Part shown: one piece after another, positions 62,456 to 62,923 of the stretch
How the letters are laid out: every line of letters starts with the position of its first letter
Numbering within the stretch: position 1 is the stretch's first letter
Assembly: GCA_030536575.1 (NCBI GenBank)
Contig: JAUNPS010000026.1
Coordinates: 361 to 64,360 of the forward strand
Length of the DNA: 64,000 nucleotides
Reading direction: 5' to 3'
Origin: Eubacteriales bacterium
Lineage (GTDB): Bacteria > Bacillota > Clostridia > Lachnospirales > Lachnospiraceae
The notes under the pieces: model-generated
Database searches by the model: none
Seen by the model: the letters and a program-made list of their open reading frames with translations, nothing else
What the model was told of the DNA's origin: nothing
Position numbers and translations under genes: made by a program

Positions 62456-62522
62456 GCAATTGCTAAACAAAAGATTGTAAAAAGGGCTTGAAATATTTGG
62501 ACAAGCGTGGTAAGATGAGAAT

Positions 62523-62622
62523 GTAAAGAAAGGCACCCACTCCAAAGTGGAGGCCAGAGTTTAGGGTTTTGTGTCTTTACGGACACCGCCTATCCTGTGT
62601 GCTGGACAGGATAGGCATTTTT
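62523..62622 (+). ncRNA. Predicted antitoxin sRNA antisense to the 3' UTR of the holin-like toxin mRNA
   Basis: Promoter TTGAAA-17-TAAGAT with extended TG (62488-62516); perfect 11-bp terminator GCCTATCCTGT/ACAGGATAGGC + T-run (62588-62622). Confidence 0.65.
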
Positions 62623-62737
62623 ATTTCCGTTTGTTTCTCTTATCAAGAAACGCGAGGAGAGCTATGACGAACATGCCGACAGCGACCATTAAGGAAGCTA
62701 CGGCTAAAATTGTAGAAACAATTTCGTATGGTGTCAT
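62621..62737 (-). CDS. Type I TA toxin, putative holin-like peptide MTPYEIVSTILAVASLMVAVGMFVIALLAFLDKRNKRK (38 aa)
   Basis: Translated by hand; one long hydrophobic helix and basic tail; RBS AAGGGAGGTG; promoter TTGCAC-17-TACAAT with extended TG at 62854-62826. Confidence 0.82.
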   Translation of the reverse strand: MTPYEIVSTILAVASLMVAVGMFVIALLAFLDKRNKRK

Positions 62738-62923
62738 AAACGTCACCTCCCTTCTTATGTAATTCCCAAATAGGAAGCATAAACTCGGAAGGCTGCCGCC
62801 CTGTCATGGGTGCTTTCTGTAACTGATTGTATCATAAGAAAAGAATGAGTGCAAGCAAAAAAATAAATTGCAAAAAATATCAAAAATCTGAATTGTGCAA
62901 AATAAATAAGCGGAGGGATGCCG

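Follow-up and report, generated by a model that had tools for sequence, protein, structure and literature searches.

Among the type I toxin-antitoxin systems collected in T1TAdb, TxpA/RatA and BsrE-G-H are families with an antisense RNA on the 3' side of the toxin gene. In the mRNA of the toxin gene bsrG, nucleotides 1-35 pair with nucleotides 232-262 to form a helix named P1; when the antitoxin SR4 binds the 3' part of this mRNA, nucleotides 1-33 become single-stranded and the helix that holds the Shine-Dalgarno (SD) sequence is extended from 4 to 8 bp (PMC3834814). The bsrE/SR5 pair has a structure similar to that of bsrG/SR4, and cleavage of the toxin-antitoxin duplex by RNase III is reported for all Bacillus systems studied (PMC6562991). 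Proteins annotated as "holin-like toxin" correspond to the TxpA family; TxpA-like sequences were reported in Clostridiales, and the Enterococcus member EF3263 is accompanied by a small RNA of about 110 nt over its 3' untranslated region (UTR) (Fozo et al. 2010, PMC2887945). Here we analyze a locus in a stretch of 64,000 nucleotides (below, the window) from contig JAUNPS010000026.1 of a Lachnospiraceae assembly, Eubacteriales bacterium GCA_030536575.1. Between the mobA gene and a tetR-family gene, a minus-strand gene for a small hydrophobic peptide is faced by a plus-strand gene for a putative antisense RNA. We conclude that the two genes very probably form a type I toxin-antitoxin cassette that is located on the chromosome and belongs to the TxpA/BsrG (Pfam Hol_Tox) kind. 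An earlier note on this DNA had pointed out the open reading frame (ORF) of the peptide, its promoter and SD sequence, the plus-strand unit, and two inverted repeats at the ends of the toxin mRNA, and each of these elements was found again where it had been placed.

Predicted Toxin Gene and Convergent Antisense Gene

The toxin ORF occupies positions 62737 (ATG) to 62621 (stop) of the minus strand and encodes 38 aa followed by a stop codon (MTPYEIVSTILAVASLMVAVGMFVIALLAFLDKRNKRK); a 41-aa form beginning with GTG is also listed. As read from the translation, the peptide consists of a single hydrophobic helix, uninterrupted over residues ~6-31, and a basic tail, DKRNKRK. A profile search, proposed earlier for this holin-like peptide, gave a match to Pfam PF16935 (Hol_Tox) with 30.8 bits against a cut-off of 23.3 (E = 2.7e-7). 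The 41-aa GTG form, used as the query of a database search, retrieved 38 homologs of 61-92% identity, all of them tagged PF16935. They are named either "putative holin-like toxin" (Butyricicoccus, Schaedlerella) or "hypothetical protein" (Marvinbryantia BRYFOR_08120), and several are called with wrong, longer starts. TxpA itself, with 59 aa, is longer than the peptide described here.

A weak match to the NCBIfam ComI family (19.6 bits, E = 6e-4) raises another interpretation, in which the peptide is not a toxin but a small membrane regulator, like the competence-related ComI of the B. subtilis plasmid pBS32, and the antisense RNA tunes its level. Some members of the family, and also YhzE-2, are non-toxic in some hosts (Fozo et al. 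2010, PMC2887945). We nevertheless consider this interpretation very unlikely, since the ComI score is far under the cut-off of 55, whereas Hol_Tox is matched above its own cut-off. Moreover, the repeated loss of the toxin gene with retention of the antisense gene, the patchy multi-copy distribution, and the absence of the cassette from the syntenic site of the nearest relative, all described below, fit a selfish or toxic module.

The toxin promoter was read from the sequence at 62826..62854 of the minus strand. It consists of a -35 box TTGCAC (62854..62849), a 17-nt spacer, and an extended -10 box TGaTACAAT (62834..62826), and the predicted transcription start (+1) is near A62820 or A62818. 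This promoter was missed by a consensus scan because its -35 box matches only three of the six consensus positions. Nearly all homologous loci whose upstream sequence is long enough have a promoter of this layout, with a 17-nt spacer and a mostly TG-extended -10 box, at the corresponding position of the alignment. The predicted toxin mRNA (62523..62820, minus strand) is ~298 nt long and comprises a 5' UTR of ~83 nt, the 38-aa ORF, and a 3' UTR of ~98 nt; the homologous toxin units are 275-307 nt long. The ends of this RNA, as well as those of the antitoxin RNA described below, were placed according to promoters and terminators, the toxin 3' end being defined by a hairpin and a U-tract. The SD sequence GGGAGG (62751..62746, minus strand) lies 8 nt upstream of the ATG and does not vary among 19 homologs. 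In Rfam, the Listeria small RNA rli28 gave a sub-threshold match (32.6 bits versus a threshold of 45) over 62668-62841 of the minus strand, that is, the toxin promoter, the leader, and the ORF start. This match was not taken as a sign of kinship with rli28, as the alignment consists mainly of the -10 region and the SD sequence and was judged probably generic.

The antisense gene is preceded by a plus-strand promoter identified by a promoter scan at 62488-62516, with TTGAAA (62488-62493), a 17-nt spacer, and TGgTAAGAT (62508-62516). It matches 9 of the 12 consensus positions, and the predicted +1 is near 62523-62525. The predicted antitoxin RNA (62523..62626, plus strand) is ~100 nt long, is complementary over its full length to the toxin's 3' UTR and stop codon, and folds with -41.1 kcal/mol (z = -4.9). 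Its terminator, found by a terminator scan (62588..62626), is a perfect 11-bp hairpin (GCCTATCCTGT / ACAGGATAGGC) with a 7-nt loop, which on the plus strand occupies 62588-62616 and is followed by ATTTTTATTT. On the minus strand, the same hairpin is the first stem-loop past the toxin stop codon. Since one hairpin is thus used on both strands, the loops of the antitoxin terminator and of the toxin mRNA are complementary, as are loop L3 of bsrG and loop L4 of SR4. Folding predicts a second hairpin common to the 3' UTR and the antitoxin, again on both strands (62571..62587, GTGTC-TTTACG-GACAC).

With only 9 of 12 consensus positions matched, the plus-strand promoter and terminator could in principle be incidental signals, namely a spurious promoter and a bidirectional terminator, or they could form a leader of the tetR gene. 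This explanation is extremely unlikely. An antisense promoter with a 17-nt spacer occurs at a constant offset in every one of 17 distinct homologous loci, and in 29 of the 30 loci from other genera detected with a covariance model (see below) such a promoter lies 1-9 nt past the toxin 3' end. The neighbours of these loci are unrelated, and the promoter persists where the toxin gene has decayed. Furthermore, the strong antitoxin terminator closes the unit ~290 nt before tetR. The Hol_Tox match, together with the conserved promoters and terminator, therefore supports, at the level of sequence comparison, the proposal of the earlier note that the locus is a type I system with a holin-like peptide and a convergent antisense gene over the toxin mRNA's 3' end.

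End-to-End Folding of the Toxin mRNA

The two inverted repeats that had drawn attention to the locus are AGAAAGGCACCCA (62527-62539), which faces TGGGTGCTTTCT (62807-62818) with one bulged base, and GAGTTTA (62557-62563), which faces TAAACTC (62780-62786). Taken alone, they are not above chance, as 17 inverted pairs of similar size occur in 551 nt. Folding of the entire minus-strand RNA (62820..62522) with RNAfold, which had been suggested along with the repeats, yielded a minimum free energy (MFE) of -112.3 kcal/mol with z = -6.5, matched by 0 of 200 shuffled sequences, and a structure with paired ends. The pairing spans the first ~35 nt and the last ~40 nt of the toxin mRNA in a long interrupted helix, for which we retain the name P1.

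The 5' arm of P1 in the MFE structure (62786..62818, minus strand) contains AGAAAGCACCCA, CAGGG, an anti-SD-like GCCUUCC, and GAGUUUA; a local hairpin, CCC-AUGACA-GGG, is its alternative. The 3' arm (62523..62566, minus strand) includes the toxin's own terminator-like hairpin, GGCCUCCACU-UUGG-AGUGGGUGCC (62555..62532), and its U-rich tail (62531..62523). The segment P1a is formed by AGAAAGCACCCA and UGGGUGCCUUUCU. The 5' end of the antitoxin (AAGAAAGGCACCCA) is necessarily similar to the mRNA 5' end, of which it is a near-repeat, because the antitoxin is complementary to the 3' arm; this likeness is what had been recorded as an inverted repeat.

As a yardstick, the bsrG mRNA of the SPβ prophage (L116:343-640) was also folded. 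RNAfold gave the published P1, the SD hairpin, and a separate terminator, with z = -5.6. The reproduction of the published P1 indicates that the method is valid for RNAs of this type.

Conservation and Covariation of the Fold-Back Helix

For the comparative analysis we used 19 distinct homologous units, which come from the genomes of relatives, from contigs encoding the database homologs, and from one paralog in the same genome. When folded singly, the mRNAs of all 19 units paired their first 40 nt with their last 60 nt through 20-33 bp. In the RNAalifold consensus, alignment columns 8-33 pair with columns 315-340, and both 3'-UTR hairpins are kept, as is a helix in which the SD region pairs with the ALLAFL codons of the ORF. 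In the MAFFT alignment, 87.2% of the cells of the fold-back are paired, as compared to 45-60% with the partner slid by 1-3 columns; these pair counts are conservative because one-base indels are misplaced in three classes. The covariation of the fold-back, a statistic that counts sequences rather than independent events, is 0.211 versus 0.179 ± 0.009 for shuffled alignments, a value reached in 0 of 500.

Compensatory changes are found in several parts of the helix. For instance, GGAAAGC/GCUUUCC is replaced by GAGAAGC/GCUUCUC in L022-L024, and GCACCCA/UGGGUGC by GUACCCA/UGGGUAC in L028. In L033 and L017, CACCCA/UGGGUG is replaced by CACUCA/UGAGUG, so that a G-to-A change in the 3' arm accompanies a C-to-U change in the 5' arm, and here the change in the 3' arm disrupts the local terminator-like hairpin. 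In L014 and in the paralog on contig C100 of the same genome the arms are wholly different (GAGGAACAAUCG/CGGUUGUUUCCUC). The stem of the 11-bp hairpin also has many compensatory changes, such as UA to CG at one pair in 6 of 19 sequences, and the second hairpin is kept with compensatory changes (alignment pairs 279-282 with 289-292).

In addition, we applied an alignment-free test, in which each 5' arm, taken at a fixed length, was matched to its cognate 3' arm as well as to all the others, and the result was compared with 10,000 random re-pairings. Arms of fixed length were preferred to a duplex search in long flanks, since look-alike convergent promoters on opposite strands inflated the helices found in the latter. 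In the set of 19 units, cognate arms pair with a mean of -44.0 kcal/mol and non-cognate arms with -34.4 kcal/mol, and none of the 10,000 permutations was as good. Among 18 independent loci from other genera, the corresponding values are -44.1 and -37.5 kcal/mol, again with 0 of 10,000. These loci were found by a model of the 3' UTR alone and were not used in building it, so that the 5' arm played no part in their discovery.

The comparison of homologous units thus shows conservation, with compensatory changes, of the fold-back helix, of the two promoters, and of the two 3'-UTR hairpins in many genera of Lachnospiraceae. Loss of the terminal pairing in homologs had been named in the earlier note as a point on which its proposal could fail; the pairing is kept and co-varies both in the 19 close homologs and in the 18 independent loci.

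Predicted Control of Translation

The SD sequence is predicted to be mostly paired; its unpaired probability averages 0.14 over the homologs and is 0.19 in this copy. A predicted partner of the SD region (GGAAGGGAGGUGGCG) is the stretch of conserved ALLAFL codons (GCGUUGCUUGCCUUUCU) at window positions ~62640-62657 of the minus strand (alignment A1 region 62194-62210). According to these foldings, coding sequence may double as an anti-SD element; little covariation is possible in this helix because the peptide is conserved. In the free mRNAs, the partner of the SD sequence is either the ORF-internal segment or a conserved CCUCCC in the leader. Binding of the antitoxin was mimicked by folding the 19 mRNAs with the 3' UTR forced to be single-stranded. 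With the 3' UTR masked in this way, the predicted mean unpaired probability of the SD sequence fell from 0.14 to 0.013, and its pairing with CCUCCC rose from 0.38 to 0.90.

On the basis of these predictions and by analogy with bsrG/SR4, we suggest that the fold-back probably keeps the CCUCCC anti-SD away from the SD sequence until the antitoxin binds, unlike the silencing seen in hok. The toxin transcript would be released at its own terminator hairpin and would then refold into the end-to-end helix. In this form the 5' anti-SD (CCUCCC, here CCUUCC) would be tied to the 3' arm, and the SD sequence would be partly masked by the ORF segment. The antitoxin would make its first contact by kissing the complementary loop just past the stop codon and would then zip along the 3' UTR, displacing the 5' arm of the mRNA. 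The freed anti-SD would clamp the SD sequence, and RNase III would cut the ~100-bp duplex. If the antitoxin were lost, the peptide would be made and would damage the membrane or the cell envelope. The fold-back had previously been taken for a silencer of the mRNA; the foldings suggest the opposite, in line with bsrG/SR4, as masking of the 3' UTR lets the anti-SD clamp the SD sequence.

A more speculative extension, which we regard as possible but rather doubtful, is a three-way switch, in which the 3' arm resides in its own terminator hairpin, in the fold-back, or in the antitoxin duplex, and the end-to-end helix is not a silencer. The leader and the antitoxin's 5' domain, which almost duplicates the mRNA 5' arm, would compete for one site, and the losing leader would use CCUCCC to shut the ribosome site.

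The same cassette might also be controlled in the manner of hok/Sok (plasmid R1) or aapA/IsoA (Helicobacter pylori), with an end-paired mRNA inert to both ribosomes and antitoxin and with 3' trimming that yields a translatable, antitoxin-sensitive form. Long-distance 5'-3' pairing and possible metastable local hairpins are common to these systems and to the locus described here; the peptides are unrelated. The 3' arm of P1 extends to the very 3' end of the mRNA, including the U-tract, so that trimming by a few nucleotides would begin to open it; according to the foldings, the SD sequence of the full-length mRNA is mostly paired; and the alternative, possibly metastable, local hairpins at both ends are conserved. 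We nonetheless consider such control improbable. In hok/Sok and aapA/IsoA, the antisense RNA binds the 5' leader or the translation start and the fold-back stays inert until 3' trimming, whereas here the antisense RNA covers the 3' arm, so that trimming would remove its target rather than expose it. Opening of the fold-back is predicted to close the SD sequence, with the freed 5' arm raising its occlusion by CCUCCC. Furthermore, the Gram-positive relatives have no known activating processing, and sequestration of the ribosome-binding site together with 3' antisense binding is their reported mode of control (PMC6562991). An assignment to hok/Sok-type control was also rejected on gene arrangement, as the antisense gene is located at the 3' UTR and not at the 5' leader or translation start.

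Several observations weigh against the TxpA/BsrG-type reading or the SD clamp that we propose within it. In this copy, which is among the weaker examples, masking of the 3' UTR changes the predicted unpaired probability of the SD sequence only from 0.19 to 0.13, with the partner mostly within the ORF, and the anti-SD is CCUUCC instead of the conserved CCUCCC. Its own P1 contains a bulge and has an energy of -35.4 kcal/mol, and for its 5' arm 10 foreign 3' arms would be better partners than the cognate one. In the MAFFT alignment covariation is modest, and many pairs are altered on one side only. A search of Rfam over 62300-63000 found no BsrG (RF01412) or other type I toxin or antitoxin RNA family at E <= 10; the best matches in this region are the sub-threshold ones to rli28, mentioned above, and sbrA (20.5 bits versus 45), and in a control RF01412 scored 210 bits on SPβ bsrG. 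Finally, RatA and SR5 are reported to have no effect on SD structure, RatA acting only through RNase III-dependent decay without a conformational change at the SD sequence (PMC6562991), so that an SD clamp is not general in the family.

Comparison with Known Systems

The closest counterpart of the cassette is bsrG/SR4 from the SPβ prophage of B. subtilis. Both encode a 38-aa single-pass peptide of the same Pfam family, and the toxin mRNA of bsrG, ~295 nt, is similar in length. In both, the first ~35 nt of the mRNA form a long interrupted helix with a 3' segment that is also targeted by the antitoxin; the SD sequence is sequestered, in the cassette according to folding, with its helix predicted to tighten once the 3' part is bound; the antitoxin gene is convergent and its product complementary to the 3' part of the mRNA; and the loop of the antitoxin terminator is complementary to that of the first stem-loop past the stop codon. 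The differences are as follows. No RNA sequence similarity is detectable between the two systems. The 3' arm of P1 is here the mRNA's own terminator hairpin with its U-tail, whereas the corresponding arm of bsrG lies upstream of a separate terminator. The antitoxin is here ~100 nt long and fully overlapped, whereas SR4 has 180 nt and a non-complementary 5' part. The SD partner is here an ORF-internal segment or a distant CCUCCC, whereas in bsrG it forms a local 4-bp hairpin. Finally, the cassette is located at a chromosomal site of a gut Lachnospiraceae and not in a prophage.

The txpA/RatA pair from the skin element of B. subtilis and EF3263 from Enterococcus faecalis likewise combine a TxpA/Hol_Tox peptide with an antisense RNA over the toxin 3' end, and the EF3263 small RNA (~110 nt) has about the same length as the antitoxin predicted here.

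The par locus (Fst / RNA I-RNA II) of the E. faecalis plasmid pAD1 also has convergent genes and a small membrane peptide. In par, direct repeats make the 5' ends of the two RNAs complementary; here the repeats are inverted, the 5' ends are alike, and the RNAs pair at the toxin 3' UTR. A par/Fst-like reading of the cassette was rejected, as its repeats are inverted rather than direct and its peptide is of the Hol_Tox and not of the Fst-like type. Elsewhere in the window, a tandem array of the par kind (18139-19333) encodes Fst-like peptides, MEYIVSFIIAVAAGVICHLISKWLDGDN and two of the form MxYMDTLVSFLVAVAAGVVCHLISKRLDGDK. Hol_Tox does not match the peptides of this 18-19 kb array even at E <= 10, so the array belongs to a different type I family from the cassette, in agreement with what had been proposed earlier.

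Distribution, Copies, and Decay of the Cassette

A covariance model built from the 3' UTR only was used to search 251 Lachnospiraceae genomes, one per genus, at E <= 1e-3, and it matched 61 of them. An intact Hol_Tox-like ORF, with the stop codon 89-106 nt before the RNA 3' end, is present in 22 of the 30 best loci; the 18 independent loci of the alignment-free test are among these 22. By contrast, a DNA-level search in 80 relatives gave only six partial matches, so that the distribution is visible only with the covariance model.

Deletion, truncation, or frameshift has eliminated the toxin ORF and/or the leader from 7 of the 30 best loci, with the 3'-UTR hairpins and the antisense promoter intact. 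These apparent orphan antitoxin loci (L119, L127, L134, L136, L139, L141, L145) belong to other Lachnospiraceae genera. Such one-sided decay, with the toxin lost and the antisense gene kept, is the pattern expected, as far as sequences can indicate, from a harmful peptide and a protective antisense RNA. If the three-way switch considered above is true, the orphan antisense genes would give immunity against incoming cognate cassettes.

A case of another kind is L032 (Logan contig SRR13490890_29590), with an intact 39-aa ORF, a replaced 3' UTR, and a different terminator. Neither a 3' arm of P1 nor a recognisable antisense promoter is present at this locus, which may represent a toxin gene that escaped from the usual control or is silent.

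The genome from which the window derives contains, outside the window, well over a dozen further cassettes of the same layout, that is, with a promoter, an end-paired mRNA, and a convergent antisense promoter after the 3' arm. They are located at C12:14658 and C12:17655; C19:5313; C59:14904; C93:105509 and C93:105873; C31:4407 and C31:4807; C100:35617-36312 (three in tandem), C100:97888, and C100:193253; C56:38961; and C79:41359. Several of them are tandem or inverted duplicates. Their peptides fall into at least three subtypes, MxxYE...LDKRNKRK, M(I/Y)(V)TY(Q/S)D...F(K)GK, and MSTYEEFM...; this last subtype is similar to the beginning of TxpA.

Genomic Context

The two convergent transcription units fill a gap of ~370 bases on a gut Lachnospiraceae chromosome, flanked by mobA (61862-62455, plus strand) and the tetR-family gene (62918-63475, plus strand). 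The nearest MoaA proteins are those of Blautia-like Lachnospiraceae, which puts the host near Blautia and Marvinbryantia within this family. In the nearest relative (L036:4485-6110), whose MoaA is 80% identical, an alpha/beta-hydrolase-like gene directly follows mobA, and neither the cassette nor the tetR gene of the window is present at this syntenic site. The absence of the cassette after mobA in the nearest relative places it outside the conserved backbone, at a synteny break. Insertion scars were not found. A tblastn search with the peptide gave no match in phage and plasmid collections and nothing that would place this subtype on known phages or plasmids. The neighbouring genes are different at every homologous locus, yet the unit of ~300 nt aligns from the toxin -35 box to the antisense -35 box.

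Discussion

The earlier note had regarded the cassette as a new combination of a hok- or aapA-like fold-back with a 3'-overlapping antitoxin of the txpA or bsrG type. Both features are already united in the published design of bsrG/SR4 (PMC3834814), to which bsrE/SR5 is similar (PMC6562991), so that the two presumed controls represent the known architecture of the TxpA/BsrG kind. The cassette reveals no new principle; it is a well conserved member of this known kind.

What the analysis adds is the extent of the family. The design of bsrG/SR4, an end-paired toxin mRNA with a 3' antisense RNA, extends well beyond Bacillus, as judged from the 61 of 251 Lachnospiraceae genomes matched by the 3'-UTR model. 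No Rfam family includes these RNAs, and annotation often misses the peptide, extends it wrongly, or labels it hypothetical. In the annotation of gut Clostridia, a covariance model built for the unit would bring many hidden genes to light. Finally, the natural co-varying arm sequences are ready-made orthogonal variants for testing RNA switches of this type.

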